DNA from: Phoronis australis
Taxonomy: Eukaryota > Animalia > Phoronida
DNA length: 64,000 bases
Direction: 5' to 3'
Assembly (NCBI GenBank): GCA_002633005.1
Contig: NMRA01000019.1
Coordinates: 770,343 to 834,342 of the forward strand
Positions 4,503 to 63,710 of the stretch are shown here, in pieces. The notes beneath the pieces are model-generated. The model ran no database searches, had not been told where the DNA came from, and saw only the letters and a list, made by a program, of their open reading frames with translations. Each line of letters begins with the position of its first letter. The first letter of the stretch is position 1. The position numbers were made by a program, and so were the translations under genes.

Positions 4503-4656
4503 TTTACTAAGCCTATTTGTCCTTTCAGCAGTGACTTGGTTGTTTTCGCTCCAACGTTTAAGAACACCCTAAATAGCAGTCTAGAAGAAGTGTATGACAC
4601 TTCGATCCTTTTTTCTATCTGTCATCATCACCACTGGAGTGTCGTGTTAAAAGCAG

Positions 4657-13015: not shown

Positions 13016-13754
13016 TTATTTCTGGGAAACATTCATAAACACTTCAATCTCTTTGCTGTTACATTTGGTGCCTAAGCTGTACCGAATATCACTTTTAAAA
13101 GCATCCTTAAAGCATCCCTTTTTGATAAAATTCCAGGAATTTCGTTCATTTCCCTTGGTTTCCTTCGATATCCTGGGTTTCTTTCCCCCCGCTCTGTTTA
13201 CCCGGCGGCGACGTCGGCGCCTTGTGCTTGCGGAACTTGACTGTGAAGTACTTCCGTTGTCTTTGGATTTCGACGAGACTTTCGCTCGTCTCTGTCGTCG
13301 CTGTTTCTTCGTTACTGACTTACTCGTTCTTTGGCTCCTTTTCTTGAGTGGACTTCTGGAGGAGAATGGAGTTTTTCTCCTCTCGGACCAAGTAGAACCG
13401 CTCTTTGATTTGCGTTTCTTGCCCATTGATTTTCGAAATTTAACTCCTTGATTAGTGCCCTTGCTTGCACCAATTTTCCTACGCCTGTTTCTTGATCGTT
13501 TGGCGCGACCTTTTTCAGCCACCGGACTCGATGATAGCTTACTCTTGCCAGGTGACCTTGATTTACGGGATCTGCTACTTCGGCTTCTTTTTTTTGACGA
13601 TCTTCGACTGCGACTGCCACTGCGACTACCTGGAGTTTTCCCTCGGTTGTTCACGGGACACTCACCGCAACACTTCGACTCTTTTCCTTTGTGACAATAG
13701 CAGCCGCACTTGCGACAACGGTATGGATTATTTCCCCGTCTGCCAGATGACGAC
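13016..13754 (-). CDS. Basic Arg/Lys/Ser-rich, Cys-cluster protein (protamine-like candidate), exon 2
   Basis: Polypyrimidine TTTTTTCCCAG acceptor, phase 2; open for 246 codons; CRKCGCYCHKGKESKCCGEC then RS/KS/RRRR tracts. Confidence 0.72.
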
Positions 13755-13816
13755 CTGGGAAAAAAGGAGAGCTTGTTTTTTTGCTCAGAAAGTAATAAAA
13801 TTAACATCTACTACTA

Positions 13817-18798: not shown

Positions 18799-18849
18799 AT
18801 GAAGAAAGGGATTGGACAAATGCTGTTTTTGGTATTTTTACTAGTTTTG
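18799..18849 (+). CDS. Delta-like giant gene exon 1 (signal peptide)
   Basis: MKKGIGQMLFLVFLLVL|GTAAGT, phase 0. Confidence 0.8.
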
Positions 18850-21800
18850 GTAAGTATTTAATTTTGGTCGTTTGTACGAATGTTTCTGATTACTGTAATG
18901 TTAACAGTGTATATCACTGCTACCGTTGATGCGGTTGAAAATTGAACCGCCCAAACCTATCCCCGTGCTCCCAAATTTTCGATTCCTTTCTCTCGCCACA
19001 AATTTCGCTCTCCCTCTCCTGGTAGTCACCATTTTGTTTACATGCTATTGCCAGCATATGCACTTTGAAAATGTTATTCCGTTAGGCATGTACACTTCAC
19101 GGTTATCAAATTACCCCTCAACAGTCTAATCGACACATGCGAGTTTTCTATGAACAACTCCTTTCAGTTTCATCAACAGTGATTTCCTAATTATAATTTT
19201 TAAAAGAATATTATTCTTGAAATTCTCTCAAGGAATGTTGTCATTGCGTAATTCATAAGTAGCGATTTTCAAGTTCTTCAAACTTTCGATGTCGGTCTAT
19301 GCTGTAGCTTTTTCCGTACAAGCTCACATTTTTGGTTGAATGGTCCGCATGTCTTGAAGCTGCTTTTCTTCACATGAACAAGTTATGTGTCAGTTCTTTT
19401 TTTTTGAGGGGGGGCAAAGGGGATGAAATTAGTGGGGGCGTCTTTCGCCCCCACCGTTCCTGCCGCCCTGTAGTGGCGTGTGTCAAAGTTTCCCGCGATT
19501 TGCTTCAAGGTCGACACACTCCACTATGTGTTTCGGATGCTTTAAAAAGGTCGGAACGGTGACCAACAAAAAGTCGCTTTAAATTCTGAAGATGGCAAAG
19601 GACAGAAATTTTCTTATCTCACCTGCGTTTTTTTAATGCGTTGTAGGTAAGGACGTCAACATGTGAGGACGAATCGCAAATGGGCGGTACCTTCGTAGTG
19701 AAAATGGTGGAACAAAAAAATCCCACCGGACGAGATTATCATGGCAACTGTTGTGACGGTGACGAGAAGAACGGTTTTTGCCAAACACCGTGCACAAACC
19801 ATTTGACACTGGACTTCCGATGGAGTGACGACGGGTAACTACACTGCACTGAACAAAGGAGCTGTATCAATATTTAATAATCATATTTTGGGATGAAAAT
19901 ATTTCTTTATTTCACAAGTTATTGCAGAAAGCATATCCCAGCCACAATCACATGCATCGTTATACAGCAGTTTTGAACAAGTTAATATTTAGCAGTAAAA
20001 ATTTTACGGGATTTTAAAGTGTTCGTTTTACAGCTCCTGTGTTGTCTCATTTTATTTGGTATCTCCACATATCAGTTTTAATCGTTTCCTTCTCGTATAC
20101 CGTTCCTTTGTATTATGATGTTTTACGATTATCTTGCACCGCGTACACATGGTGTCCTATAGGAAGGCAGATCAGAAGTCAGAACCGTCATTCGCTGACG
20201 ATAGCTTGTGAAACACCTGTTTTTATTGTTCCACTCCAAATCAGACGGCAGGTCTGCTTTCTTATCAAGAGACGGAGCCTATCATCCAAAGTCGTGATTT
20301 GTGTTAGGCTCTGCTGCCTCGTGCTGAGATTGCACGTGATTGGTCAGAATATTCGCATTTTTCTCGTAAGACAGGACACTTCTGAGAAAGTTCGTTATAA
20401 ACGTATGTTTTGCCTTTAGCTCAGATATCCTATATATTATTATAAAAATTCCATGTCCGAAGCGCGCTATACGATACCGACATACCTACCAATTGCGTTC
20501 GTCTCTTATCCCACGATGAGAATTTTTTTGTAAAAATCCGACCAACCGCTTTTGAAGCCAAGCGTTCACAAAGGCGCCCTATTTAACTTCTTACAAGATC
20601 AACAATGCCCAAAATGTGAGTGATGTTCTGTACGATCATTTTCGGAATGTTATAGCCTTCTTACGGTAAGAAAGCAAATTATCCCGTCTAATTTATGGCG
20701 GTTGATACATGCGTGCACCCAGTCTTCAATATGGGGGGAGGGGGTCGAATACTTGACGTTGTGGACCTTTAGCTAAGAAAAGAGCGGGCGGACTAAAAAA
20801 AAAACGGGAGCTCCACATTTTGTTTCTCAGGGGCGGACCTTTTTGCCCCCCGAGCCCCCCCCCCCTGGGTGCACGCATGTGATCAGACGGTACATCTGAC
20901 GATGAGCGTTCGCATGGATCTATGTGTGATAGGGCTTCTGAGCGGACGGTATGTGAACACAAACTCAATGCCGGATGGGCGTCGCTGCCGGATAGCGCGT
21001 GACTGACCGTTTACTATAATCGAGCCTACCTCTTTTCTCAAGCCGTTCTTCATTTTTATCTGTTATTGTCCTTCATATGTGTCCTTGTTAGTAAATAAGA
21101 CTGCATTTGTATTCGCCGTCATATTTCCGTTTTATGTTTTATTGTATTGTTTTGTTTTACGACATCCACAATTAACAGGCCTTGACCGACGAACAATGGA
21201 TAATAGACTATAATGGGGTTATCTTGGCCCAAGACGGACATAGGTGTGCTGTTAGGCTTTCTGTGGCCCCAGTACTGGCTTAACAGTGACAATATTTGCA
21301 GGCCGTCATCCAGCAGTTTCTTAACAATCGGTGTAAAATACCGTGCCAACAGCATCACCTTCCCGACAGACAACCCCGGCTTTACCAATCCTGTGTATGG
21401 GAAAATAAAGCGTTGGAGGGTAAGTTCATCGAGATCAATGTTCTTTTTAAACAAAAATGTCAACAATTATTAGAACAAAGACCTCACTCAGCAACTCTAG
21501 TGTTTTGCATCATAAAATAGAAACTATTTGTGGGTTGATCACCAAATCTGAGGAACCAATGTCTCGTATTGGATCCTCGCCCATGCAAATTCACCGCCGT
21601 CTAATGTGTTTGTCTTCATTCTCCGTTTATTAGTTACCGAGGTCAATTTCACAATATATAAATGGGCCGAAGAACAAGTAATCTGGGACTTCTCATAGGT
21701 ACGCATATAATGAGCAGTATTCAAGTTAAAAAAAAACAAGAGATCTCGGCCGTCACTGAATTAGATATGTTACCGCTACTAACTGTAGTTACTTAACTTT

Positions 21801-24800
21801 CCTCGTATTCTTTGGATTTAATTCCACGTAATTTTGCCAAATTTCAGTACAACGTCACCATCAGCGCCACACTGCGCAAAGATAACAGCAGCGGACCTCT
21901 GATTGACACCTTCCAAGACTTTTATATGCGTCCTGCGGCATATCAGGCTCGAGTCAATCACACTTTAACCAGGTTTAACCTCGAGGGCAGACGACCAAAT
22001 AACGCTTCAACGTAAGTAAAGCGGCACAACTGCTCGCCATTCGAGCAAATCGTCGAAACATCACTGCGGAAACTCACGCGACCGCCAATTCGTGTTAGTG
22101 ACAGTTTAGACCTAACGTAAACAAAAAGAATAGATGTCCTGCTTTGACCGTGTGTCGTAACTGGTCGGAGTTTAATTGTCAGCCTGATCGCGCCCAGAGA
22201 GGGGGAGGGGTAAGGGTAAAAGTCACTGGCACTACGGATCGTGCCACTCGAGATAGGAGGCTTTATAGTTTTTAGTGAGATAGGACGCTTTCATTTTTCA
22301 ATTATATGTACACTCTACCATATGACAGAGATAATTTTTTATTTGGACCTCAGTTAACAAAAGGATCAATTTTCTCAACGCCGACAAACAGAGAAGGATT
22401 TCCTGTCGTGTGAAGGTCTTGGAAAGTATACTGCGCGTGCGCGTATTTACGCTCGTGCGCTCATATTCCTTGGGTCTAAAACGGGCACAAGTATACCGTT
22501 GGCACTTTTGAAAAGGTTGTGACAAACATCTACAAAAGCCTTGTTATACAGTGACTTTTCATATAAGCTCCCAACAAATACTTCAATCGTGCATAATTGA
22601 AAGAAAACAGAATAAAAAGTTCTGTTTCCGTCGCATCCGACTTACTTTGAAATCCGCACCCGTCTGCATGGGCGGCGCACCATATGATAGGGGGCTGGGG
22701 GCTATAGCCCCACACTTTTTTCAGTGCTACAACGCACTTGGTCTATAGGCGGTGCACCACAGGGGCCCTGAAGGGGCTTTAGCCCCCCCACTTTTTTCAG
22801 TGCTGCACCGCCCGTGTGCATCACTTTTACCGAAATTATTTTTCTAATTTTCAAAAGCTACACAATCAATAGGTTTAGATCAGTGATTTTAAATCCCGAC
22901 CAGCCTTCTTCCACCCCGGTGATCCAACCGGCGGAGAAAAGATAAATTCCGTCACTGTGGGAATAATAAAAAAAATCGTACCACTTTCAGCTCATAGGCT
23001 AGCCTATCTGGTGATTTTTTGCCGGCGGGGGAAATAACACGCGGCGACAAAAAGATACGGCTTTGTCCAATTCTCAAACTAAAATAAGCACAGACTAGAG
23101 GGTTTTAGCTAAGTCATTCTCTTGCTCTCTTCAGATGTCTGACCGTTTTCATAGCCTGAATACCTATACACATGGGCAGCGCACCATAGGGGGTTATGGG
23201 GCTATCAGTAGCCCCCTTACTAGTAGTTTTTTCAGTGCTGCGCCGCCTATGGGTGGTGCACAACAGGGTGCCTGGAGAGTATAGTCCCTCACTTCTTTCA
23301 TACTGTGCCGCCCATGATACATCAGCACAAATAGACCTTGTACTTAGTACAGAAAAGAAGCAATTAAGCTTTTTGGCCTTACTCTGAAACAGGCCTTATC
23401 CCGGCCATTGTGACGAACCATGCAAACTTTCTTGATAATTATCTCCCCTTGTTCACGGATTTGGCTGCTCTTCGATTGTAGAAAGTAAAGTTCGACTAAA
23501 TTGACGCCATTTTTAAAACACTGCACAGTTGGCGGTGGACATGTATATCATTCTTTTAAACAAACTTATGCCGTTTGTCATCAGCAGTTACTCCCCACAG
23601 TTGGCGATGAATCCACACGGACTTGATGTCGTCAGATGTGACAATTTGTGTGATATTTTGAGACACCTGTTTTGAAACGTGCTTCCTGTGAACCATGTCA
23701 TGAGCCTGTTAGCCACTGGCTACAGCCCTGTAATACAGGGCATTGGCCTAATACTTTAGCTGAATAGTTAGCATGCTCGCCGGTTTTGTCGGGGGTTGCT
23801 GGCTCGATTTCCGATTCTGGTAATCTTGATTATTACTAAAATTGGCGTAGTCGGCAAACAAATGATATACTGATGAAGCACTACATGGACCCTCGAACCT
23901 TGGACAGCACGCTTGTTGTGATACGTGCTTCGGGTGAATCATATGTTTTATGTCTAACACTAAAAATTACTGTGCCTGCATTCTTCTCAAGCTTTGCATT
24001 CACGACTGCCGGTGTATGTGTCACCAATGTTGACACCTGCATGTCGCAGCGATCGGAGAAAATCGAGCTTTGTGACTACAGTAAAGGGAAAATGTTGGCA
24101 TAAGCTATAGCTCAAGTTCAGATGTTGTTCATGGTTTATACCAAGGTCACTGCAGGAAATCAAGTTTAACATGGGGAATTGTTGTTGGTAAGCCTACATG
24201 CAATATCTCAAGAAAGCAGCTTTTTTCATTGTTTGAAGGTGTAAGTGGGAGAATTCTTGGCAGGAGTCGATTTGGGGCTTTGACTTTATTTCAAAGGTCA
24301 TAGCGAAAAAATCGGGTTTTATTGACTTTGATCAAATTTTGTTAGGAGGTTTAGATGTTGGCAACTTCAGGCATTAATTGATTTTGTTAACCTTGACTTT
24401 CATTTTCAAGGTTACAGCGAGAAACCAGGTAGGCGTGGTATCTCAACGAGGCAGGCTTGGATGATTTTCATGAATGTTTTACACTAATAGTTGACATAAC
24501 TCTTGGTGCCAGTCAATTTTGGTGACCTCAATTTATTTTCATTGGTAGCAACAAAATCAGTTTACATGTGAATATGTTGTTGATGCGACAAAAATTGTTG
24601 CAAAAATATTCATCTGACTTACCTTTACACAAACTATCGTTACCACGTACCATTTTTGTACCCTTAAAAACGGATGCATCTCCAGGCAGTGGGGTAAAAT
24701 TTGGTCAACCTGTGACAAATGCTTGTTCTGCTTCAGATTTGTACTTGAGCTGAGTGTCTTCTGCAACCCCAACTTTTATGACAGAGACTGTAGTAGGTAC

Positions 24801-27800
24801 TGCAATGCATCTAACTGTGATGTTGTGGAGACTCCATGCAGTCACGATCCGTGTAAAAATGGTGGAACCTGTGTCATCAAGTCGTCGACAACCTATGCAT
24901 GTTCTTGTCCCGCAGCATGGACAGGAAGTCAATGTCAAACTGCTTTTGTGAATATGTCATGTAGCGACATAACATGTCAAAACAAAGGAAGGTAAGAAGT
25001 ACTGCAAGTGTACTGCTAAGTGATAGAATAGAAAACTTTCAATTAATTAGCAACATGGCGACTCGCGGAGAACAGATACTAGTGGCCTCTAGAGGATGAG
25101 GACCGAGGAGGCAATTTAAATTTTGTTAAAAAACCTTCATGTGTAATCACATATAATGCAAAAGCGTGTTTTTCACGAACAAATTGAAATGTTCCCTTCA
25201 CCACCCGCTGCGAAGATAAAGTACCTTCTCATGCAGCCACATGGCATTAAGTGACCAATCGCATGTGAGCAGCCTTCATTGCTGAAAATTTTCCTTTACA
25301 GCGTGTGTCAATCAAACTTGGAGACCTTTTTGCTCTGTTGCGATTATTTGTGCGCAGCTACTTAATCTCTTTATTCATGTTCAGTCACTAAAGACATTTA
25401 AGAACCAATCAAAAATCTCTACCAGTTGAGATGGTGAACTTGCTGAATGAATTCCAATCAAGTGTGCCCAGTGTTAAAATTCTATAATATGGTTTCTTCC
25501 ACAACAGCTCAAATCAATGCCAAAAAGGGTTAAGTATTTTATTTGCCAACGTGTTTTCTGTTCCTGATGTAGAGCACAGTATAGTTGAATATCATAAACC
25601 AAGTGAAAAACTGTAGAAATATACCTCATATCTGAAGTTTTAAGTATTATTATTTAGTGGAAAGGAGTTTTCAAAACGTTCTTGACAAAGCATGCCTCCT
25701 TTTTATTATCGCAAGAAGTAGACCTAGCACATTGCCCTTGTAGAAAATGTGACCTTTGACCTTGATGTAAACAAACCAATGGCAATTTCAAGCCGCAGCC
25801 TGTCTGACTTCTGTGAGCACATACGCATATATATTATTAGGGGCGGAGAATTTGGAAACTGTATTGGGATGAAACTGTTTTATTTAGTCTGTATTTCAAA
25901 AATAGTGAATCTGACAATTTTTTTAGAAGCTCTTGCAGTATTAGAGGTGAATAACTCTCATGTTAGCATCCCGAAGAAGTAGATTTGCCACGATCTGTTT
26001 AAAATGTATTTTTTACTAGTTTTCGTGCTCCATGTCTTTTTAATACTGTAATAACAATGTCAATTTATTATCAAAAAAAGTTGCTTGTGATAAGCTTTCG
26101 AGCCACCGTAACAATGATTCTGGACAACCCTCCACTGCATTTGTTAGTAGACCTGTAGTGCTTTCACGCTGTAGTGAAATGAAGCTAATTCATCAAATTC
26201 CACGTTGCGTACGTGTACGTGAAGGAACACCTGATTAAGCTCCAATATATGATGAATAATTTAAAAACGGAAACGTGTAATTCTTGTTTTCTTATAGTTG
26301 TGTTATGGTTTCTGGCAAGGGGCCAACATGTGATTGCCCGAAACAGTGGACAGGCATGTTCTGTCAGACTGATTACGACGAATGTCAGAGCAAACAGTGT
26401 TTGAATGGGGGTACGTGTGTCAACTTGGAGGGTGGCTTTCGCTGCACCTGTCCACATGGTGAGTCCTTTTTCTTTATGTGTCTAGTTCCTAGCTCTGTTT
26501 TAATCTTAATTATGTTTTGATGCTGTTTTTGGAAGAGCTGACTGCTAGCCTTGGTACAAAGGTGAGCCGGGAGTATACTGCTTTGGACTGATGTGGGTAA
26601 AAGGTGGAATAACTAAAATGTGACCTAAGTTATTGATTCTTCTTTCAGCGAGCAAACTTGGTTACTAGTAGGCAAAAGATGTTTTTAGTCAATGATTCTG
26701 AAGTTAATTTTGTGTCGCCATCACATGCATCAACTTCGAGAACCAGCTCCACCCATTAGCCACTTTTTAAGCTGATTCTTCAATAAACTGTTCTCTATTC
26801 AGAAATGTTTGTGCAATTCAAAACAAATATGACAATTGTTTTCAGTTTGCTGTAATTTTTAGCAATTAATTACTGGTAAACTGTATTTCTTAGCAAATTT
26901 TACTGTGGCAAAGTAGTTTCCTAATACACGCCGCTTTACTAAAACAAAAGATTCAGAAAATGGCATCTGCACATGTCACGTGCATACTTGTTTAAGTGGA
27001 TAGAAGACTTTTTTTAAATTGTATTTGTTTTCTCCTGAATGGCCCCAAGGTAGGTGTCGTTTGATAGGCAGACTGACAAAAACTCTCATCTGGTTGGGTG
27101 TGCTCCATTTTGGTGCAAGTTTCATGGTGAGAGAAAAACAAATAGAGTTGTGGCGAATTTAAAAAGTGAGCTTTGTTTACTTTGCCACTGTTTTACCCAC
27201 ATCAACTCCTAGATGTATTTGATGTTTAGTTGTACACAGCTAGCTGCATGGTTGGGCAGCTCATGGCGTAAGTGGCAAGGGCGCCATTTTGAATGTTTAC
27301 ATTGTATTAGGGAAGAAGATAGTGCTCGTGTTTTATCCTGTGAAAGCACACCTGTGGACTTTTACCAACAATATCAGTACATGTAAGATTTACGCTTAGA
27401 AAGTTTGCTCGTCTTTCGTCAGATTATGAAGGGACCAAATGCGAAAAAGCATCCAATCCGTGCGAGTCCAGGCCGTGTAGGAATGGTGGTCATTGTAACA
27501 TTGAGTCGTCAAAGGAGAGATTCTCCTGTAGCTGTGTTGGTCGGTATGTTGGCCGAGTCTGTGAACGACTTGTAGTCACCGGTCAAGTGTACCTGAATGG
27601 CAAGAAGTCGGAGATTTCACGTCAGATGGGTAAACTGTACCAGCAGCTGATCAAAATGTGGTACAAGAGACGACCAGGTGAGTGGGCACACGAGGTGGGG
27701 GTACCTACAGGAGACACTGCGAATATGACTGACTTGTTCCAAGGGCTTGTATATCGAAGAGTCTATAGCCAAAAGTTGATCGTTTTGTCGTTTGGATATG

Positions 27801-30800: not shown

Positions 30801-31185
30801 GCTTAACAAATGTCAGCATTAAGTCTTTAGACCGAAATATTCTTATTCGTATGGGCTTCACTGATACACTGGAAGGGCAGCAAGATGCACACCAGAAGCG
30901 AGGTGTACAGTGAAGCAACAACATGAATGGGAATAGTTCATATTTTATGATAATGAGTAATCGTACAATACAGACTGACATTTAGAGAGAATACATGATA
31001 ATTAATGACATTGTAAATGTGGGTGACAATGAGCCCACTAATGTCTTCAGTGAATACATAGGTTACATCGATGGTAATGGTGGGTGACAATGATCCCACA
31101 AGGCTATGGTAACAGACGTACTGAAAATGTACAATAAATAGAGAGAGAGAGGGAGGGAGGGAGGGAGNGGAGGGAGGGAGGGAGG

Positions 31186-31223
<38 letters not shown>

Positions 31224-52200: not shown

Positions 52201-55200
52201 CCGTGAGGCTGACTATGGTCGAGTGGAACAGTCGCTCAAGAAGCTGTTCGCCAGTGTTAACCCTGCCTTGGCTACATGCAACTGTGTCTCTGTGAAGGTG
52301 GTGAATCAGACGCAGCTGGCTAATGGGTGAGTTGTACATACATAAATTACATGACTGTGTGAGTGCGTGTGCGTGTGCGTGCGTGATGAGATTTAGTTGG
52401 TGAACAACTTGCGAAGTGAGCATCATTGCCGTAGCCTAGTTTGTCTTATACAGTTGCTAATGTTGACAATGGCATCTATGAATGAATGCCTCTGTAAGTG
52501 TACTTGACAACTGTTCAGTAATAATCTAACTCCTGAACACATCTCCTGCGTTAAGCTGAACAATGGACAGGTTGAGTGAGTAATCAGTCACATTGAACCA
52601 GAAACTATCACCATGATAACAGCATAATTCAAAGCACTGGTCTTAGGTTGTAAGAATAGTACACACATACCACCAGTAAGACAAGTCTTATAACTGCATT
52701 TAACATGAAAAGTATTTTGTTTTGAAGCTCAATAAAACTTAACTAAAGGAACTTTGTGACCACCACCATTGCCATCACCAACAATGCCAACATCACCGCC
52801 GTCAACATCATTATCGAATGAATGCTTAGCCACCATCACCACCACCATCACCGTCATCATGGCCACAACTAGCATCACCTTCACTGGTATCGCCACCATT
52901 AACAGTTAGACTACTTGCGTCACTCCTACAACCACCACAGCCCTCCTTTCTACCATCACCGTCACCATGGTCACAACTAATATCACCCCCACTGACTTTG
53001 TCACGGCCACCAATAAAACTGCTTGCATTACTTCACATCTGCCAGGACCATGACCACAACTAACACCACCTTCACTGACATCGTCTTCACCATCAATAAG
53101 ACTACTTACATCACTCCATCTTTGCCACCACCACCACCACCACCACCATCTTTGCCACTACCACCACCATCATGGCCACCACCACCATCATGGCCACCAC
53201 CATCATAGCCACCACCACCNCACCACTACCACCATCATGGCCACCACTACCACAGTCATGGCCACCACCACCATGGCCACCACCACCATCATGGCCACCA
53301 CCACCAGTACCATCTTCACTGACATCATCTCTACCAACAAGACTACTCGCACTACACTCACCATCACAATCCTGCACCTCGATCTACCACCACCATCATT
53401 ATCTACTGTTTCTTACAGTAGCCATGCCATCACCGTGGATGGTGTAATTCGAAGTAGTCAGCCAGACCTTCTCTCCAACCTACTGAACAAACTGGGGGAC
53501 CAGAAGACCTGCCTCAAGGCTAACGGCTCTTTGTGTGACACCATCATCATTGACCCCAAGCACAAGTTCATGCTCCTCACTGACAAGAAAGTGGCTGACG
53601 ATGACATGGAGAAAATGAGGACATCTCTACGCAAAGCCTGGCTTTCCGTAATTCCTGATAGTATGTGTCTGTGTGTTCACATTTGCTCTATTTCATCTTT
53701 GTTTGACTTGCTTACACTGTAATTACTGCACATGTCTAAAGTATAGACAAAATGACCTGCAATTCGCCACTGTGACGGCTTGGCTGAAGTTGGAATTCAT
53801 CGCCAGAGTAGTCTCCTCTTGTGACTAATAATGATGAGGGATAAACAGGAAAGTCAACAAGGTCACTAAGGCATTGTGGGATTAGAATTTTGTCACCATA
53901 ATAGTTAGTACAAGTCATTTTTGCTGTTAATTGATTTAGTCTTCATGGTGGGGGAAATTGTATTTGTCTGATTATGTTTGTCTTGAGATTGATATCCACA
54001 ACTGTGCATCAACTGGAAAATATACATGAAACTGTTTTATTGAATTATGCCAGTGTCATCTTTCAAAACCATTTGTATTCGGTTTATGTTTTGGTGTGGA
54101 ACCTTTTGTTTTGGTTCTTTAGTGTTAGTGTTACAAAACCACAGACTATTTTTACTGGTTTGTAGTTTGCAGTTTTAACTTGACATAATTAGCGTTACAT
54201 GACACATTAAGTATTATTAGAAGGGTTAATTTTCTGTTTGTTTTTTTTCTTAATGTGTCTTAAGTTGTGCATTGCTTCTGCAGGCTACAAGACAGATTTT
54301 GATGTGCGACTGAAATCTCGTGAACCTGCTGTTGATGCAAACGGGTATGGTGAATTTGAATGTGAAACAATGGCATTTGTTGTTATTATTTTACATTCAA
54401 TAGATTGCTCTCAAGTGGTGAAAATATTCAACATTTTGACGTGACTTAATGTGACATTGTTGGCGAGAAAAGTAATTTTCATAAATCAGTCTCTGCTGAT
54501 TCAAACCTGCAAACCCCTGCGGTCACTGAGTCAGATGTTCTACCGGTGGAGTTAAACCTCACTTGATGGGTGACAGAGTATTTTAATCGTACTAGTTAAC
54601 TGGTTGATAATAGCCAAAACATGAGCACGAACTTTAAAATTAGCGCGTAAGTAAACAAAGACATATTGATCTGACATTTCGGTTTATTCACTATAAAACA
54701 TTCTCAAGACAAAAATTCACATTATTCAATCAGGTTAAACTTTTTTCTTGAGAATGGTTTATAGTGAATAAACCGAAATGTCAGATCAATATGTCTTTGT
54801 TTACTTACGCGCTAATTTTAAAGTTTGAGTTAACTGGTTATGCCACAAGTCTTGATTTTCAAGAGGTTTGTCAAAAGAATTAATTGCTGAAAAGGGTTAC
54901 CCTGTCCATGAAAGTAAACAACTTTTGATTCCTTCATCTCAGTTAATTCTCTGTTCCAAGTCAGATTTTATTTTCTTGAATTGCAGAGATTCACTGATTG
55001 GCAAACGCTTATTCACTAAATTGTATAGATATAGTGCCATATCAAACTTTTTTTGTTGGTTGATAATTCATGTCAAGCATGAATTTGATGAATCTTGTTA
55101 TATTTTGAGTGAAGTTATTTCTGAATCATTAGAACAAGAGTCAAGATATATTTCTCCTTAATATGGCTTCAAACTTCTGCCAAAACTTAATTTTTTGAAA

Positions 55201-58200
55201 TTCTTCTCATTCACCTTTAATTGGTCTAGTTTACATACGACTTCATATCACACGGTCTTGTTTCTTAGCAACAAAGTGTGGGCCCTCAGCTACTACCTGG
55301 TGACGCGAGGCCGTCAGCTGACTCCCAATGACGTACCTGTGATGACTATGTCCACCTATAATACCTACATGAACGTGAAGAATGCTGCTGGCCTACGGTA
55401 CCAGGTGATCAGCCAGAAGGGTGCGCTACCATATGCGCTTCACAACAGACTGTTCTTCTCTCGTCCTGTACTTAGAGTGGACATGGACCATCTGCAGTCT
55501 GCGATACAAGCTGCTTGGAGACAGTGGGAGGAAGGTATGGTAACATTGCTATACCTTATAAGTTAGGAGTGCCAAAAATCTTTTCCATGTGCTGCCTTAG
55601 AGTGTCCAAGTCTGTTGGTTGTCAACACTTCTACAATACATACTCTGCTAAGTATCAAGCAAAATTTTCTCAAGAATTTAGTATATTCTGACTTGTCATA
55701 CCTTGCCTTAAAATTTGACAAATTAAGGTTTCACCAATTCCGCTACATGGTGTTTTAAGAAGCTTAACCTTAAAGATAAAAATTTGTGATTTGAACGATC
55801 TTCTAGAATCATGTGGTATCCATGTTGTAAATAATATGTTAAATTGACCGCATGGATTTTATTTTTAATTAATTTGTGCACGTTTTTTCTCTCAAACAAT
55901 TGAAATGTAAGCTGAGTGATGAGGATAATTTCATACTTGCCTTCTAGTGATAGTTAATAGTTGGTTGCACTAGTGTTGCACTAACAACATCCTTTGGCTC
56001 ATTTGTCCTGCCAGGGGCCTCAATCCCTTGATTTTGGGGCTGAGCATCGGCCCCATTCCCCTCTGAAAAGAATTGACAAATCACGTGAAACTCCCCTCAT
56101 GAGGCCCAAAAATTACCCTCAAGTGATTGAAAAATTCCCCTGACTCATAGTTCGAATCACTTGTAGCTCACACAGGTGGCAATTTGAAAGAGCACAAAAA
56201 ATTAGTTTTGGATACTTGAGGCAGAGCATCTGGCTCTAAACAGGGCAGGTGGTGCTATTGATGGTGATTGGGGGGCAGAATTTTCCGCTCAAAATTCCCC
56301 CCTCAGAAGGCACCGTCAGGCACCTTTTCCTTCGGTGATCGAGGGCCCTTTACTCCATTTGTTTGAGCAGAAATAAAGTTTTATTGTTCAATACTTTGCA
56401 AATTGTTGCTTCTTAATTCAGTGATTTAATATAATGTATCTGGTGAATGATTTCATTACAACAAAATAATATTCCTTTTAATCTAAAGATAAATTCTTAA
56501 CAAAGCAGTTACTATTAATTTTATTAATGATATGCTGTGATTTATAGATGCTGGTAAGAATGGTTCACTTGTTCACATCAAGGTTTTGGGACAGGAAGAG
56601 TATGTGGATAAAACAGGGTAGGTCGAATAAATACAGAATATAAACATTACACTTTTGATTGATCTCAAGATTTACATTTTGGTTTCATTGGTGCTATCTA
56701 GTGATAGTTACTTTTTGACTGTATTGAGAACCTTTTTCGTACAAATATCTGTAAATTTCATACGTCGTCGAATGTGATCTAGGTTCTCACATACGAAGCC
56801 TGGTGGCTCACAAAATTTGCATGCCTACACTGCTTGCTGTGTGAACTGGAGCCTTCCATCACAAATGCAGTTATGGCCAGATTGTTTTTGTTACCTTTCC
56901 ACCCCGGTTTTACCTCCCTGTCTGCTGTCCCTCATTTTCATTTACATTGTCTTCTTCCAATAATATTATTCTGTGTTTCCAGCAAATCCTACTGGAAGCT
57001 GATGTATTTCACCAAGAGAGATGGTGCCTACTTCCAGTCCAACAAGCAACCCCCTGTTAGTCTCATCTCCTCCAAACTGGGCCTGCCCATGACTTACTAC
57101 AAGAAACTCTACAAAGACCTACTATTGGACCACCAGCCAAGTGGCACTGCACCATTCTCTTACCACTTTTTTATACCACTCAATGAACAACTGAGCCCAT
57201 CGCAGTACTCACGACAAAGTGACTCATTCCGTGACGCCGCTGTCCATTTGAAGTCAGGTACATCTAATTTCTTAGTTACATAGAATCGATGTATAAATTT
57301 CTACAACTCTGACAATCTGCATCTGGTTTAACGACACTGTACGTTATGAAGCACAGTTAATAAAAGTTAGACTCAAGTGAAATATTTACTGGACAAGATG
57401 TATAAAAAATCTTATTTAAAACTCTGCGAAAATATTTGCTTTTAGGATTAAAAGTGTTTCTACTTGTCTGGAGATCTTTGAGCTGTAATACATTAGCGTC
57501 AAGTTCTTGAGACTTAATTTCTATGCACTGTATGCAGTTGTCCAAATAGTTTAATACAACAAACTACTTTCTTTCTAGACCTGGGCAAAAAGAGCGACTT
57601 AAGTGCTGAAATCTTGCCAGCAGCTAAATACACTGGTCCTGAAAGGTAGGAAGTTAAACATACGTCTCTTGAACTATAAGAATCTAGCTGAAAGTTGTGA
57701 AAACTCGGCTTCATGTATGAGCTGCTAGTGGTTTACTTTTAAATTAGACGGTAAGAATCTTGATCTACTTCACAGGGATGTCTACCATCAACTTTTCCGC
57801 CTGTACAAGAATGGTGCTCTAGTCTATCCTGGTGATCACGCTGACCTGCAGCACAGCCTGATACACAGCTACTTCATACGAAACAGCGATCCGATCTACA
57901 ATGTGACCACTAACCGCAGGGGAAAGCAGCGATATGCCATGGCGTTCAATGTTTACACAGACAAATCAATACCTCTCGGAGACCGCTTCAAGTTCAGCAA
58001 GGCTATACAAAAAGCTATGGAAGTTAAATACCCAGGTGGAGCTTTTGTTCTTTGTTTTAGAGTTTGATCCATTCATCTTAAAACTAAATTGATTGTAGCC
58101 TTTGATCAAAATTAAGAAGATGTTCTTAATGTGCTTGAAATGGATTTGCATGTCGGTTAGATTTTTTGCTGTAATTTGCTTTAAGGCATTGTGGGTAATG

Positions 58201-61200
58201 TGCGCAAATGGCTCAATTCTTTTGGCTCAGTCTGTTAATAGTTACAATTGTCTAAGATATTGGGTCATTTGCTTTAAAAGTTTGTCACTTGTAAAGGTGT
58301 TGACGTGATGTTGCTGTTATCATTCTCTAATACACGACAATTAATTTCCAGAAGCCAAAGGTCAACTCGAGGTTTCCCTTGGTCGTGACGAACCCTTCAT
58401 TATACCTGACTGGTAGGCTTTACAAAGTTTTCCTTATAAGTAAATTCAATTTTACATGAAGCATTAAATTCCCTTTTTGAACTAGAATTAGTTTGTGTTG
58501 CTCTTGTTAATATGACTTTTGTGTAAATTAAGGGATATTTTACTGCAGAGTGAGACAAAATGTCATTACAAAAACCTCCCGTATCAACTCCAGATGGCTT
58601 CGGTTTCCAAATCAAGACTAAATCCAAATATCAATCTAGTCCATTGTTAAGTGTTGCCGTGGTCTGTTTTCCGGCATCACAACTCGTGGCCCATCTACCA
58701 CTGTTTCAAAAGTTACTAAATAAAAATGAGTACCAGAGAACCGACAGCTAAACAATGCATCTATTTTGACTAATTTGATCATATGTCTTTGGGGAAAAAA
58801 ATGTTCGACAACTAATTTTTTACAAGAAATTTAATTTCAGAAGCCAATCTGGTTGAAAAATAAACAGTTTTAGTCCCCGACTCCAAGATATATGAATTAA
58901 CTTTAGCCAGTGTTGTGCTGTTGTCATTGTTACTGTGGCTGTTCCAATGTATAAGACACTACACATTCCTGCTACATTTTGTTGCTTGCCTGTTCATGTA
59001 AGATTATTTTTATTTGGCTACCATTCTGTAATTGACATAGCTACTAATCTGTAGTCGTGGCTATTGCTCTGTTGGCATGGCTACCGTTCTGTAGTCATGG
59101 CTGTCACTCGGTTGACATGGCTATCGTTCTGTTCATTGTTGCATCATTTAATTCCAGTAAGAAGGTATGGAAAATATCGGCCTTTGTCACAGTTAACGGC
59201 AAACCACTAGATGGCAGGAAGGAGGTGCCTTTGAGAGCCTCAGAGCTGCAGCCACACACACCATTCAACATTCTTGATGTCATGCAGTCGTCGTCATGGA
59301 AACAATACAACTATCACATGCCTCTGTACTTGAAGGGCCAGCTGGACCCTAAACACATCAGTAAACTGGAGACAGCTCTGGAACAAACATGGAGCAGCCT
59401 GAATAGTGCGTTGCTATTGGTGACTTTCAAAATTAATGACATTAACTGTACAGCACATGCCAAAATGATCTGAGAAAATAACCTGGAATTCTCCGACCTT
59501 GAATCACCCTTCTTGACTGCAGCCACATTTCTTGTTTAAATTCTTAGTTTATAAATTTGAGCAAGATCATTTTGAAGCTTTTTTTGTTCTCAAGATGAGG
59601 TTGACTGGCATTGCTCTCTATGATAGGAGATAAGTTATACTGAATTAAAATTTTCTGGTGTCAGTTATGATTTAACGACAACATGACAATTTTGATGGTC
59701 CATTGTGATATCAGTTTTGATTATTTTTTACTAAATACAAAAAGTCCATGTACTGAAAACACACCAGTCTTATGGTCATTAGCAATAAGTGCTCAATGTG
59801 CTTGGAAATAAAGGTAACAGGTTGGAACTTCACAGAACGAAGCAACGGTAAAATAGTTCCTACACAACTTGAAAGTTGCCCAATGGCCTCTTTCACTGGG
59901 TTATATTTTCATGTTATGTTGAAGCCTTCTACCTCGTCTGTACAAAATTAATTAGTTTGTTCTTGACTGAAACTTAATAATTCGGTATTATGTCCTTATG
60001 TTTCAGTTTATCAAAACTGTAAATGCATCACTGTGAAGATATGCAAAGAACTGTTCCTCTCCCAGGATGGAAAGTAAGTTGCTCACAGGTGTCGCTGCTG
60101 TTAGGGATCGTGGTTGTCTGCAATAATGGAAAATAGACAGAATTCATGGAATCTGACTTGGTTCGCCAGATTGGAGATTTTGAATCAGATTTCTGTATTT
60201 TAGTTGTAAATTCCTTAAATTTGTTTTTAATTACCAAAAATTAACTTAAGAATCAATATGACCCATCAAATTTGATGTATTCTTAATACACTGTCAAGGT
60301 TTGTGGTAGCTGCAATTTTCCTGATGGCAAAAAATTGTCAGGAAGTGAAGAACATAGGGCGTTATTAGACTGAAAATGCTATAAAAAGATTATTAGTTTT
60401 GTTGATGAATTGTTATGAAACTGTGATGGTAAGAATTACACTAATTGTTTTGTGGTGTCTGTCCTGCAATTATGACATCATGCATTGGGGTAGTATTTAG
60501 TAGGCAGAGCATTCAAAATTTCTTGTGTAAACACTATCAATGGTTTTAAATTTGAGCTAACTAAATCTTGACGATGGACAGTTTGGATGTCATTGCATCG
60601 ACTGCAATTCGACAGTTAAGTGATTGTAAAGTTTCTTCAAATGCAAAAAATGAGTAACTTGAGTTGATACAGAAACTGTAAAATTGAGGTATAACTAGGT
60701 CAAGAATGGAGTAACTAGATCAAGAACTGCAACGGCTATGTAACTCACTGATCATTATATAGTCTGGATGTACGTAGATTTGTCATTGGAGGTGTTTCGT
60801 TTTATGAAAGTTTAATGGCTCCAAAACTATGAAGAAATCCTAGGATGTGCAGTTTTTGGAAAATAATCATCTGTGTTTGTTCTGTATTAATTTTCTACTC
60901 ATTACAAGAGAATTGCCAAAATGACTTTCCAGTTTTCAATTTTAAAAGTTATTTCTTGTTGCTACAATTGATCAAATTGTTGCAGCATTTTGTGGCTTCT
61001 GAATGTTAAGGCCTTTCCAGAAATGAAGTTGAAGTATTTTTTTATTTAATGCGCTTCATTTCTGTTATGAAAAGTGACAAAATAAATTAAATGTTCAGTT
61101 TTGTGTGATGACATAATGTGTGGTAAGAAAATGGAGAATCAATGAGTAAAGTATACCATTCTATCTGTAGGGGTTATGTAACCAAGCTGTTGGGTTTCGT

Positions 61201-63710
61201 CTCTGCACGCGGCAAGTTGATTGATGCACGTCAGCTCGACTATCTCCGCAACATCATGGCCGTACGGTTCTGGAATTTAGTGCGACAGCTGGGACTGGAA
61301 TATGCCCAGTCCAAGTTTGTACCCAAACGTTCAACGGACTCATATGATGTGATCGTCAAAGGTGATGCGAACACGGTGGACTTGACCTCATTGAAGAAGG
61401 TGTTGTTAACGGTGTGGAAGAAGAAGTTGAAGGGTGCGTGGGCTAAACTATGTTTAATTATTAGCTAATTGCATCTTGTACTGTTCACATAATTCTTTTG
61501 AACAATTCTTTTCTATATGGTCTCGTCATGTACAGAATATATACATACACAAAACGCACCAAGAGTGGCGTACATGAAGTAATATCCCACGAGACATTAG
61601 TACGCGTATCGACTGAGACGAAAGATCGAGGTTGATAATGCGGAATAATGTTGAGTGGGATATTACTTCATGTACGCCAGTTGAGGTACGTTTTGTATTT
61701 ATCCCATACTCTTAGAATTCCTATGTTTCTTTCATTTTTTCCGCAGATTTTTTAAGTACTTCACTCAGACTGTTCACATGGCGGATCACACCCTATATGT
61801 ATGTACTTGCGCGTTAGGCTGCAAGTTTTTGCTAGTAAAAAACAGTACTGTTTTAAATGTGACGATTTATTTCTTGAAAAGAGATAACAAAGATGAAAAC
61901 AAGCCAGGGTAACTTTTCATTAGGGTAACTTTTCATTGAACTTGTCACATCTCCTGAAAGTAGTTAAATAACAACAATATTTGATATTGTAGTTACCGAG
62001 GGATCGGCGCCTGAGTTGCAGACGATAAAATATTTAGCAAATGAAAACTGAGACAGAACTGTCATACGATTATCAGTCTTGTTCCAGATGTTACGATTGA
62101 GACCTGATTGTGTTATTTACACTGTCTCATGCTATAATTGTATTACTTTTAACTATTTTCCGAAAGTTTGGTGATCGAACCGGCTTACGACGTCAAGTCG
62201 ACATTGACCTACCTTTTGAACTTTTCATGTCAAAGGTCACTGTTGAAGTAGTGCGGGAGGTGAATACGGAAAACTAAATTATTACATGGCCGTATTTCCC
62301 TCGCGTATGGGTTAAAATACAAACCTAAAGTATTCAGACAAATTAATTTGGATTGAATTTCCCATCATGGTTTTTGGGCGGAAGCCGAATTCACGGTTAG
62401 AGTATAGCGTTCTCTCATGATCAAGAATGATGGGGAATTAACTGAAAATTTAGTAAGGTCGCTGATCCATTCTGTAATTAGACTAATTCTGCTGTTCTAA
62501 TAGTCATTACCTGTAGGTTTCACTGTTTACGGAATTAGTCGTCATGATGGGAAAACGATATTTTGCTCGGTTATTTTTGTCTTGTGTATTTCAACAAGCT
62601 GACCACATGACTGTGTAGAAATTGGTGTGCTTTTGATTGCTGATAAAGTATAATGAAAAATGGTAAAAGTAATACATATTATTTGCATTACTAGACACTC
62701 CAGCTATTTAGTTGCGGGTAAATTTGTAACATAAAGAAAGAGCATACCTAGTACTAGAGCACTCAGGTTCGTTTCTCTTTGAGTTGTTTCAACTTGTTAT
62801 AATGAGAGTATGATAATATGTGGCAACGCCACAATTTTTTTGACCTGTAAATTGTTTGGTAATAGAATTGTAAGAGTTATAAATCATACATTTTTGCATT
62901 CCCTGCAGATGAGAACAGCACTGTGACATTCTCCAACCTACAGAGTTATTTCGGCAACAATGGTGAACGTCTGCTGAGAATCTCTTACGTTGTGCAGGAC
63001 GGTAATGGGACCAAGCAAATACCTGTGAACACTGAGTCGCCACGGACGACAACCCTGATCCGCGCAGCCGAGGATAACAAGCTGCAGGTGGGTGATGTGT
63101 GACTTCATGAATTAAGTCACCATGTTGGCAATATATTCTGCAAATTACACATTTTGAGGTCAGCATTGTCAACCAGCTTCTTAGTGTTGAGCAGCCATTC
63201 TGGGGCACGATAATGTTGGTCGTGGCAGTCATAGACACGTTATTGCAAACTCTGTCCTGTTTTATAATCACCCAATGAAATAGTTGGTCATAGGAACGAG
63301 AATTTGGCATTTCCAACAGTCATTTATCATACATGAATAACAACTTCCATCATGATTATGTCTAAATGTTACGTCTCTCACGTTTCTTCTGCTATTTTTG
63401 ATTGGGCAAGCCACAATGATCATTGTGCAAAGGTTATATTAATATGTTTTGCTGACTGATGATGCCATTTATTTCAAATTTATAACTAACACTTACACTA
63501 TTCACTTGACTACTTGATATGGTTGTAAGATATTTACGAGTACATGGCTCATCATTTGCCCTAATTAACCCCAGGTAAGCTTCCACGATGGTGGGCTGGG
63601 TACAGAGAAGAAGAGTCTACACACACTGACAGTGGACAAGGCTGTGTACTACAATAACAGGAAGGGTCTGGAGCAAGCACTGATGGCATCGTGGGCCAAG
63701 AACACAACGT
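18799..63710 (+). CDS. Giant secreted/membrane protein: signal peptide + MNNL/C2-like + truncated DSL + 4 EGF + >=18-19 tandem ~110-aa alpha/beta (SEA-like) repeats; 43 exons, 3'-incomplete
   Basis: 43 GT-AG exons with continuous phase, 7105 nt summed; exons listed separately. Confidence 0.88.
19647..19834 (+). CDS. Exon 2 (MNNL N-terminal part)
   Basis: GGTFVVKMVEQKNPTGRDYHGNCCDGDEKNGFCQTPC. Confidence 0.85.
20708..20879. mobile_element. Short MITE with perfect 15-bp TIRs
   Basis: CATGCGTGCACCCAG / CTGGGTGCACGCATG; flanks TGATA / TGATC (imperfect 5-bp TSD). Confidence 0.8.
21302..21419 (+). CDS. Exon 3 (MNNL)
   Basis: ...ITFPTDNPGFTNPVYGKIKRWR|GTAAGT. Confidence 0.8.
21848..22011 (+). CDS. 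Exon 4 (MNNL/C2 C-terminal part)
   Basis: YNVTISATLRKD...LIDTF...LEGRRPNNAS; phases 0/2. Confidence 0.8.
22667..22816. mobile_element. GC-rich MITE dimer, same family as 2081-2217
   Basis: Reverse-complement similarity to 2081-2217. Confidence 0.7.
23171..23251. mobile_element. GC-rich MITE monomer, same family
   Basis: CATGGGCAGCGCACC ... GTGCTGCGCCGCCTATG. Confidence 0.65.
24737..24991 (+). CDS. Exon 5 (half DSL + EGF1 + start of EGF2)
   Basis: CNPNFYDRDCSRYC; CSHDPCKNGGTC...CSCPAAWTGSQC. Confidence 0.9.
26298..26458 (+). CDS. Exon 6 (EGF2 + calcium-binding EGF3)
   Basis: [41 protein letters not shown]. Confidence 0.92.
27423..27677 (+). CDS. Exon 7 (EGF4 + start of repeat 1)
   Basis: CESRPCRNGGHC...CSCVGRYVGRVC then VYLNGK...LIKMWYKRRP. 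Confidence 0.92.
27997..28362. mobile_element. hAT-like element end, truncated at an assembly N
   Basis: CAGGGCTTGG terminus with repeated TTTCCGC subterminal motifs; absent from the duplicate flank copy at ~28527. Confidence 0.6.
29093..29163 (-). mobile_element. tRNA-derived SINE head
   Basis: Minus strand: GGCAGTGTAGCCTAGTGAG (A box)...GGTTCGAATCCC (B box); no clean acceptor stem. Confidence 0.65.
30685..30751 (+). CDS. Exon 8 (small repeat exon)
   Basis: LANCKCITHEPVSVEDYIDSKG; phase 1/2. Confidence 0.85.
31141..31222. repeat. (GA)n/(GGGA)n microsatellite with an internal N
   Basis: Direct observation. Confidence 0.95.
31728..31904 (+). CDS. Exon 9
   Basis: NDVTKVTYRLLINGIPVD...; phase 2/2. 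Confidence 0.85.
33160..33260 (+). CDS. Exon 10
   Basis: QLHFDVNFKG...KLEKAFLNTFLVKYP. Confidence 0.85.
33982..34048 (+). CDS. Exon 11
   Basis: RKGCNCVEFDIKQQQVFTDVFG. Confidence 0.85.
34767..35035 (+). CDS. Exon 12
   Basis: NKVTRLLYTM...KVKQQLEKTYEKLDP. Confidence 0.88.
36169..36229 (+). CDS. Exon 13
   Basis: LKGKVQVQILKQEPYVTSDG. Confidence 0.85.
36567..36841 (+). CDS. Exon 14
   Basis: KTISSVKYKVLVDG...KLKDSLLQAWLTQKP. Confidence 0.88.
37288..37351 (+). CDS. Exon 15
   Basis: LSKESTDVEITSVKPMVNNRG. Confidence 0.82.
37847..37977 (+). CDS. Exon 16
   Basis: EMIYKVNYFLKVNGKRVD... Confidence 0.85.
38497..38692 (+). CDS. Exon 17
   Basis: ...KLKTSLKKAVEAKYPRLGKVKITTLPQQEYTTSDG. Confidence 0.87.
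39607..39878 (+). CDS. Exon 18
   Basis: KTVHKLLYKV...KLESDIKNTITKFMP. Confidence 0.88.
40040..40105 (-). mobile_element. tRNA-derived SINE remnant
   Basis: Minus strand: TGGCTCAGTGG A box and GTTTCGAGTCCC B box. Confidence 0.55.
40412..40475 (+). CDS. Exon 19
   Basis: LKGKNVKITIKGQEEYLDKNG. Confidence 0.85.
41006..41262 (+). CDS. Exon 20
   Basis: NKRSRLYYTVDADGK...KFEKAIKDAWLKFKP. Confidence 0.88.
41857..41920 (+). CDS. Exon 21
   Basis: LKNRNISVEVNSVKKYLDSNG. Confidence 0.85.
42223..42488 (+). CDS. Exon 22
   Basis: KERWKLSYYVMDNGK...VEQALTEAWSQKHP. Confidence 0.88.
42737..42794 (+). CDS. Exon 23
   Basis: LKHLNVKIARQDEVLTENG. Confidence 0.85.
43134..43414 (+). CDS. Exon 24
   Basis: DTLWKATYFVYSG...KIAKALQMAHQATMP. 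Confidence 0.87.
43863..43905 (+). CDS. Exon 25
   Basis: VTLKIVTDELYAEG; phase 1/2. Confidence 0.8.
45065..45333 (+). CDS. Exon 26
   Basis: QKLLYRLIYFVMDKKG...KFAGALRNHW. Confidence 0.87.
45833..45887 (+). CDS. Exon 27
   Basis: GDFKFSFMSQEEHVTSKG. Confidence 0.82.
46368..46648 (+). CDS. Exon 28
   Basis: ETLYKFPFVVFENDRPLDG...QLSKVLKDYWLLVYP. Confidence 0.87.
47959..48025 (+). CDS. Exon 29
   Basis: LKNCSCLEIDMKNVQSGKDVKG. Confidence 0.84.
48438..51949. mobile_element. Degenerate ISL2EU-like DNA transposon (3.5 kb) in intron 29
   Basis: AT|GGGGCTATTCGGA...TCCGAATAGCCCC|AT; subterminal GTACTAGTGGTGAT mirror; minus-strand SAP-like and YqaJ-like remnants. Confidence 0.8.
49774..51857 (-). pseudogene. 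SAP + YqaJ/lambda-exonuclease-like transposon ORF, disrupted
   Basis: QLNLRLRKKGVSMRGSKHDLIQR|gt (~51830-51764); TPAVLHGTMCKSVALEK (~50240); SGLSVYPDELYLTATQISLVGED (~50150); LKLKKT*SH; VFTFKGLIVDVI...KLDLFY; stops and frameshifts present. Confidence 0.7.
51994..52326 (+). CDS. Exon 30
   Basis: KPLYRYLYSLKVNN...RVEQSLKKLF...TCNCVSVKVVNQTQLANG. Confidence 0.88.
52757..53400. repeat. Degenerate (ACC/ATC)n low-complexity tract with an N at 53220
   Basis: Direct observation; produces poly-T/P/G/V ORFs in several frames. Confidence 0.9.
53419..53660 (+). CDS. Exon 31
   Basis: SHAITVDG...KMRTSLRKAWLSVIPD. Confidence 0.83.
54284..54344 (+). CDS. Exon 32
   Basis: YKTDFDVRLKSREPAVDANG. Confidence 0.84.
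54630..54825. repeat. Near-perfect ~80-bp inverted repeat, possibly Penelope pLTR-derived
   Basis: AACTTTAAAATTAGCGCGTAAGTAAACAAAG...TTCTCAAGA / TCTTGAGAA...CTTTGTTTACTTACGCGCTAATTTTAAAGTT. Confidence 0.85.
55269..55534 (+). CDS. Exon 33
   Basis: NKVWALSYYLVTRG...HLQSAIQAAWRQWEE. Confidence 0.87.
56012..56349. mobile_element. Degenerate hAT-like MITE
   Basis: CAGGGGCCTCAAT start and ATCGAGGGCCCT end; internal AATTCCCC repeats. Confidence 0.45.
56548..56617 (+). CDS. Exon 34
   Basis: AGKNGSLVHIKVLGQEEYVDKTG. Confidence 0.85.
56983..57257 (+). CDS. Exon 35
   Basis: KSYWKLMYFTKRDG...SDSFRDAAVHLKS. Confidence 0.85.
57579..57645 (+). CDS. Exon 36
   Basis: LGKKSDLSAEILPAAKYTGPE; phase 1/2. Confidence 0.78.
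57776..58035 (+). CDS. Exon 37
   Basis: DVYHQLFRLYKNG...KFSKAIQKAMEVKYP. Confidence 0.86.
58352..58412 (+). CDS. Exon 38
   Basis: AKGQLEVSLGRDEPFIIPD. Confidence 0.8.
59158..59405 (+). CDS. Exon 39
   Basis: KKVWKISAFVTVNGKPLDG...KLETALEQTWSSLN. Confidence 0.87.
60007..60073 (+). CDS. Exon 40
   Basis: YQNCKCITVKICKELFLSQDGK. Confidence 0.83.
61171..61433 (+). CDS. Exon 41
   Basis: GYVTKLLGFVSARGKLIDA...SLKKVLLTVWKKKLK. Confidence 0.86.
61545..62316. mobile_element. Non-autonomous element with a palindromic head (Crypton-like)
   Basis: Hairpin TGGCGTACATGAAGTAATATCCCAC / GTGGGATATTACTTCATGTACGCCA around a GAGACGAAAGATCGAG loop; TTATCCCATAC at ~61699 mirrored by GTATGGGTTAA at ~62305. Confidence 0.55.
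62909..63087 (+). CDS. Exon 42
   Basis: ENSTVTFSNLQSYFGNNGERLLRISYVVQDGNG...; phase 1/0. Confidence 0.84.
63575..63710 (+). CDS. Exon 43 (last in window; gene continues)
   Basis: VSFHDGG...GLEQALMASWAKNTT|GTGAGT. Confidence 0.84.

Follow-up and report, generated by a model that had tools for sequence, protein, structure and literature searches.

What kind of protein would place the head of a Notch ligand on a very long stalk of repeats? This question is raised by a gene on the + strand of a 64,000-nucleotide stretch of the Phoronis australis genome (GenBank assembly GCA_002633005.1, contig NMRA01000019.1, positions 770,343 to 834,342), hereafter the window. We lean, with modest confidence, towards the view that the gene, of which the window holds the 5′ part, encodes a giant surface protein, likely of single-pass type, whose C2-EGF tip stems from a Notch ligand and is carried on a predicted SEA-like stalk, and which acts as a long MUC16-like tether or receptor able to extend, and not as a canonical Notch activator. 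It combines known folds in a new architecture and belongs to a family, not being a one-off.

The gene model was built from splice signals first and was then corrected with raw RNA reads of the same species, coming from three raw-read runs (X1, X2 and X3) and mapped to positions 18000-31100 and 32800-52700 of the window. It comprises 43 exons (18799-63710), all introns being GT..AG and consistent in phase, with a spliced length of 7,105 nt, equivalent to 2,368 aa, and no stops. The original prediction, made from the letters of the window, had given about 2,370 aa in 43 phase-consistent exons, and splicing and translating them, as it had proposed, yielded a continuous frame of 2,368 codons. The proposed RNA check of the junctions was satisfactory for part of the gene: at least 23 of the 42 were visible among the joints listed, whereas the 12 junctions after exon 31 are outside the mapped stretches and junction 8-9 lies between them. 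The seven junctions from exons 1-2 through 7-8, which trace the path from the signal peptide to repeat 1, were all present in run X1 with 26-53 reads each. A further 14 joints fell between exons 10 and 30, and loose-end consensus sequences matched junctions 9-10 and 30-31.

Exon 7 encodes the fourth EGF and also opens repeat 1, whose first strand and helix it contains; 29 reads link it to exon 8, in agreement with the earlier claim of a single gene for both the EGF and the repeat parts. Junction counts were also comparable between head and array, and both showed one sample pattern (high in X1, low in X2, none in X3), as expected for one transcript. The 5′ end of this transcript was placed near 18642, where many X1 molecules terminate; an in-frame upstream ATG at 18727 would put 24 aa ahead of the signal peptide. 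Among the 19 listed exonic differences between reads and window, 14 were synonymous. RNA placed the exon of the interval 46648-51994 at 47959-48025, and the ORF-like pieces at 46985, 48570 and 49394 were rejected as exons since reads skipped them, as was a candidate exon at 21635. Neither a transmembrane segment nor a stop was found within the 2,368-aa model, and the gene extends past the window end, exon 43 closing at a phase-1 GT donor. The features of the gene are as follows.

18642..18798, + strand: 5′ transcript end and leader (X1 molecule ends; translation)
18799..19664, + strand: predicted signal peptide, aa 1 to about 23, spanning exon 1 (18799-18849) and the beginning of exon 2 (hydropathy; RNA junction)
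19683..24761, + strand: MNNL/C2-like domain, aa about 30-182, exons 2-5 (PF07657; alignment with heads of relatives P0001 and P0002; junctions)
19647-19834, 21302-21419 and 21848-22011, + strand: exons 2, 3 and 4, with exon 5 starting at 24737 (MNNL/C2-like region)
24762..24818, + strand: DSL stub, aa 183-201 (four Cys, at 183, 192, 196 and 201; no PF01414 match)
24831..27571, + strand: four EGF domains, aa 206-362, exons 5-7 (Pfam EGF matches)
27572..31899, + strand: repeat R1, aa 363-477, exons 7-9, sharing an exon with EGF4 and with CxC in its second strand (repeat profile; RNA joint 7-8)
31900..52159, + strand: repeats R2-R11, aa 478-1581, exons 9-30 (repeat profile; RNA)
52160..53554, + strand: repeat R12, aa 1582-1682, exons 30-31 (repeat profile; 30-31 as RNA loose end)
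53555..63610, + strand: repeats R13-R18, aa 1683-2335, exons 31-43 (model and repeat profile)
63611..63710, + strand: partial repeat R19 (exon 43, phase-1 GT donor)
48435..51952, no strand assigned: 3.5-kb multi-copy insertion in intron 29, outside the mRNA (skipped by 49 reads)

In the head, the N-terminus is the most hydrophobic 19-mer of the whole model (Kyte-Doolittle value of 1.87 at aa 5) and, by hydropathy only, was predicted to be a signal peptide. Exon 2 matched MNNL PF07657 (E 1.9e-7, 31.2 bits against a cut-off of 22.5), and the MNNL/C2 region could be aligned with the heads of the molluscan relatives P0001 (Potamilus) and P0002 (Patella). Pfam matches to EGF families covered exons 5-7, with four EGFs in total; EGF1-3 contain the O-fucose consensus and EGF4 that of O-glucose, and a Ca-binding motif precedes EGF3. 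However, exon 5 gave no match to DSL PF01414 at E≤1. What is present at this position is a stub with only four Cys, a loop of four residues that is long in the relatives, and the last Cys pair missing. As junctions 4-5 and 5-6 were confirmed by RNA, there is no overlooked DSL exon. The composition of the head announced by the original prediction, namely signal peptide, MNNL/C2-like domain, half DSL and four EGFs, was therefore supported by Pfam, Cys pattern and junctions.

Such a head could suggest a long-reach Notch ligand or decoy, whose C2 domain and O-fucosylated EGFs would still bind Notch while the stalk either bridges a wide gap or absorbs the pull, leaving Notch bound without activation. 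The MNNL match on exon 2 and the O-fucose consensus in EGF1-3 are in line with this, as are the Pfam-scoring DSL retained by the relatives P0001, P0002, P0003 and P0075 and the FxNxxY-type tails of some relatives, which could provide endocytosis. Canonical Notch ligands have an Arg/Asp-rich motif in the DSL loop, but the DSL loops of the relatives also lack it. Moreover, the DLL4-Notch1 structure has the MNNL and DSL domains as its two main contacts (PMC7922208), so that the window protein keeps one of these sites while the other, being a stub without Pfam match, would be largely lost. There are also four EGFs against the 9 or 16 of Delta and Jagged (PMC5356439). We consider this explanation unlikely, and the earlier option of an active, very long Notch ligand is disfavoured by the DSL stub.

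Gazave et al. 2017 (PMC5356439) define Delta with at least nine EGFs and Jagged with at least 16, and proteins with extra domains are there termed DSL-like and excluded from the analysis. The signal peptide and MNNL of the window protein fit the Delta definition, whereas the complete DSL, the nine or more EGFs and the absence of foreign domains do not; the combination of at least 16 EGFs and vWC that defines Jagged/Serrate is absent, no Cys-rich vWC being detected within the 2,368 aa. Judged from its sequence, the protein is neither Delta nor Jagged by those definitions. With Delta, Delta-like and Jagged proteins it shares the signal peptide, MNNL/C2, DSL-type Cys and EGFs with O-fucose consensus, as well as, in its relatives, the type I topology. 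It differs from them in the four-Cys DSL stub, the four EGFs, the lack of vWC and some 2,000 aa or more of SEA-like repeats that replace further EGFs.

The array following the head consists of 18 complete repeats and a partial one, each of about 110 aa, with a mean identity of 17%. In a leave-one-out profile all 18 complete repeats scored 19.5-80.4 bits, while the best of 200 shuffles of each reached 3.2-16.1 bits; the count of at least 18-19 repeats given beforehand was thus sustained by a shuffle-controlled profile. R2-R11 are mainly encoded by pairs of a long (about 270 nt) and a short (about 60 nt) exon. CxC motifs occur in 5 of the 19 repeats, including R1, R2 and R11, and 15 of 18 have a pI of at least 8.5. 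Ser plus Thr content is 8-22% per repeat, and the window's model has no Pro/Thr/Ser-rich O-glycan domain. Just 5′ of exon 31, at 52760-53400, a CAC-rich low-complexity tract reads as a Thr/His/Pro-rich frame; it is intronic in reads joining exon 30 directly to 53419 and may be an alternative mucin-like exon.

No credible Pfam match was obtained with the 19 repeat-bearing exon translations, the SEA profile PF01390 matched none of 25 window exon translations or 20 relatives, and sequence searches of the PDB gave a best E of 0.34, a second search having nothing at E≤10. Two predicted models were ferredoxin-like, that of window exon 30 (pLDDT, predicted local distance difference test, 86.5; permuted register) and that of relative P0005 (pLDDT 82.5). 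The register of the exon-30 model is circularly permuted relative to the true domain, and this model ranked generic ferredoxin folds (transposases, HMA domains) highest; a SorCS2 domain was also among its fold matches. In the true register, the best structural matches were the SEA-like membrane-adjacent domains of PCDH15 (MAD12), CDH23 (MAD28) and CELSR1, the MUC16 SEA ranking lower. The nearest structures are thus extracellular SEA/MAD domains and not other ferredoxin folds, at a sequence identity of 7-13%. The best structural row in the Atlas was a KIAA1549 cluster (template modelling score 0.64, under the naming bar), and KIAA1549/UPF0606 PF12877 gave no Pfam match. These models predict that the repeats are SEA-like/MAD domains of ferredoxin fold (the SEA fold is described in 10.64898/2026.05.06.723240) and not a new fold. 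The structure prediction and Foldseek check that had been proposed consequently went against novelty of fold, although neither model had a Foldseek match at E≤0.001. The repeats had been called unfamiliar, and this stands for their sequence, no named family having been found by Pfam or in the literature searched, but not for their predicted fold.

SEA domains may cleave themselves. In 17 of the 18 repeats a GSVVV-like autoproteolysis motif is absent; R12 has a shortened hairpin with Gly-Ser (aa 1637-1638) where SEA domains self-cleave, reading G-S-H-A-I (G-S-Y-A-I in X1 reads) at the shortened strand 2-3 turn, and this is a candidate site only. The RxKR at aa 1029-1032 (41154-41165) was rejected as a furin site, about 0.4 such motifs being expected by chance from composition.

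As the window ends inside the array, the rest of the protein was approached through its relatives. The search for homologues across metazoans that had been suggested was performed with a profile of 15 long exons and gave 74 proteins at E≤0.001 among 1.84 billion; the weak matches P0061 and P0067, covering short stretches only, were disregarded. By contrast, word-indexed protein searches found none among 7,993 candidates with the exon profile, 1 of 7,983 with A4 and, with P0002, only itself among 2,172. The named species among the 30 relatives looked up were Potamilus, Patella, Owenia, Dreissena, Haliotis, Mizuhopecten, Tegillarca, Mya and Gigantopelta. Relatives with head and array therefore exist in bivalves, gastropods and an annelid (Owenia), and the protein is not lineage-specific, contrary to the earlier inference. 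The length of these relatives is 1,250-3,630 aa and the repeat occurs in about 6-27 copies; a DSL/EGF head and a furin-type site are each frequent. In Patella P0002 a signal peptide and MNNL are followed by a full DSL, one more domain and EGF, then by a Ser/Thr-rich stretch and 27 repeat segments, with a membrane helix and tail at the end, and Potamilus P0001 has a like architecture. Owenia P0003 combines three DSLs and numerous EGFs with a vWA and about 13 repeats, and Mizuhopecten P0075 shows, after its N-terminal domain, a DSL stub like that of the window protein, then a full DSL and about 6 repeats. A Pro/Thr/Ser-rich stretch was found in P0001, P0002 and P0075. Of the 52 short matches, 42 span just the long-exon part and omit strand 2. 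This pattern points to shared intron positions, although matches of this kind are favoured by the query.

Five uncharacterised spiralian proteins with automatic names ("hypothetical", "Delta-like protein"), KAK6195844 (Patella), KAK3591160 (Potamilus), CAH1774350 (Owenia), XP_021363915 (Mizuhopecten) and XP_067679697 (Haliotis), have the same repeats, a membrane helix and a shared tail motif, with DSL/EGF-type heads in four of them. They differ from the window protein in having a full DSL and mostly a Ser/Thr-rich stretch, identity is about 20% and the middle repeats are not collinear. Repeat-by-repeat orthology with P0001 and P0002 was not found except near the array end, where both long relatives offer repeat 22 of their 27 as the best partner of R18 (z 3.6); the anchor is thus probably 4-5 repeats beyond the window.

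These data bear on a further possibility, that the protein is secreted and forms matrix, adhesive or shell material, with polymerisation via the CxC motifs of some repeats. The signal peptide, the lack of a membrane helix in 2,368 aa, the CxC in 5 of 19 repeats (each full-length relative has CxC or CC in 5 of its 27) and the strong expression in one of three samples would all suit it, and a shed ectodomain could end in matrix. However, a strongly hydrophobic C-terminal helix was detected in 7 of 11 scanned records, corresponding to six genes, the other four stopping inside the array. Helix and short tail are hence present in all six genes of relatives that reach a C-terminus, and the position of R18 places the expected anchor outside the window. 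This option, also raised earlier, is very unlikely.

Among the full tails, YDxE[HN]F is common to four of five and FxNxxY occurs in three, with the FxNPxY form in P0001 only. The FxNxxY-type tails could indicate an endocytic or scavenger receptor, in which SEA-like domains would be binding sites like the tandem modules of LRP-type receptors and the tail would drive uptake. The strong divergence between repeats, the SorCS2 domain among the fold matches and the basic pI of most window repeats, which could bind polyanions, are compatible with this. Nevertheless, the NPxY form is in one of five tails, basic charge is not conserved (P0004 is acidic), and the SEA/MAD domains known so far serve for the most part in spacing, dimerisation or switching by cleavage. 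We regard such a receptor as quite unlikely.

The preferred reading, a tether or receptor with a Notch-ligand-derived tip, can be compared with other SEA-fold proteins. PCDH15, CDH23, CELSR1, KIAA1549 and KIAA0319, the proteins to which the repeat is closest in structure, have one to three SEA-like/MAD copies near the membrane, whereas here at least 18 (27 in relatives) form the whole stalk. KIAA1549 is described as having a furin site in its membrane-proximal SEA-like domain (PMC13570299), and a likeness to it is the RxxR furin-type site in a membrane-proximal copy, the third-last repeat, of P0001, P0002 and P0008. By analogy, the nearest functional counterpart is MUC16, for which about 56 SEA domains are predicted (PMC4456727) and which shares the tandem array of SEA folds (18 complete repeats here, fold predicted). 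The window protein has no Pfam SEA match and no mucin stretch, and its head is C2-DSL-EGF instead of an O-glycan tandem-repeat domain; its array is probably an expansion independent of that of MUC16. In the literature searched, SEA repeats were nowhere described in a DSL/MNNL protein; members may be listed in the supplements of Gazave and of Pei and Grishin 2017, the latter reportedly dealing with divergent SEA domains and possibly including some of this family. Expanded or degenerate DSL proteins are noted in Notch surveys, such an array being absent from the portions of their text available (PMC8166818, PMC12166595).

Functionally, the protein would be a type I membrane protein whose tip may bind a partner at a distance, whose predicted SEA-like stalk would both space and yield, whose tail may recruit sorting adaptors and which may be shed near the membrane. 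The first and last strands of this fold are adjacent, and in simulations PCDH15 MAD12 unzips between them at low force, releasing more than 40 nm per about 120 residues (10.1101/460097). Taking these values, 18-27 domains in series could yield 0.6-1 micrometre of slack. A bolder and rather unlikely extension is an ancient spiralian family of giant Notch-ligand-headed receptors, with up to about 27 mechanically weak SEA-like domains as a spring of about a micrometre, that would contact distant Notch, or an EGF array like it, with the pull force capped, the DSL-stub member being non-signalling. If true, the ligand itself would bear the force-sensing fold of Notch's own regulatory region and would be a ligand or decoy with buffered force.

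Other domains accompany the repeats in the family. An unannotated, apparently strand-rich domain of about 120 aa lies between DSL and EGF in the molluscan relatives (P0001, about 160-275; P0002, about 225-335), and related units follow each DSL in Owenia P0003; the domain is absent from the window protein. P0041, P0070 and P0081 display a second architecture in which the same repeats are preceded by an EGF array and a lectin-like domain (a weak C-type lectin match in P0041), with an RSKR site.

Several other elements were observed in the window. The insertion at 48435-51952 is bounded by terminal inverted repeats of 16 bp, with AT flanking it on either side. RNA reads cover both its strands heavily in all runs, have loose ends at each terminus and reveal a spliced joint of its own (48769-49394), and its two ORF pieces have no Pfam match; it is a multi-copy, transcribed DNA-transposon-like element. 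At 27828-28528, a multi-copy transcribed element of about 365 bp (27997-28362) is flanked by two 169-bp direct copies with 98% identity, and a tandem array at 691-939 has 12.4 copies of a 20-bp unit. On the - strand, 13016-13807 is a stop-free frame of 263 codons whose beginning is Cys-rich and which has a very high content of Arg, Lys and Ser and no Pfam match; we take it to resemble a protamine-like sperm basic protein. Also on the - strand, the frame 3960-4568 has an eh1-like motif and no Pfam match; its C-terminal stretch presumably resembles exon 1 of a Tlx/Hox11-type homeobox gene, and a motif scan at coordinates below it detected no homeobox exon.

The finding provides a second case, beside MUC16, of a stalk made from tens of SEA-fold domains, in a repeat family that escapes Pfam and carries in UniRef only the label "Delta-like protein". 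It also reveals the nature of some of the "DSL-like" proteins omitted from lophotrochozoan Notch surveys. The repeats represent a natural series for studying the mechanics and cleavage of SEA domains. Mechanical buffering can be tested directly here, a ligand-type head being mounted on a chain of weak domains while activation of Notch requires that its ligand transmit force.
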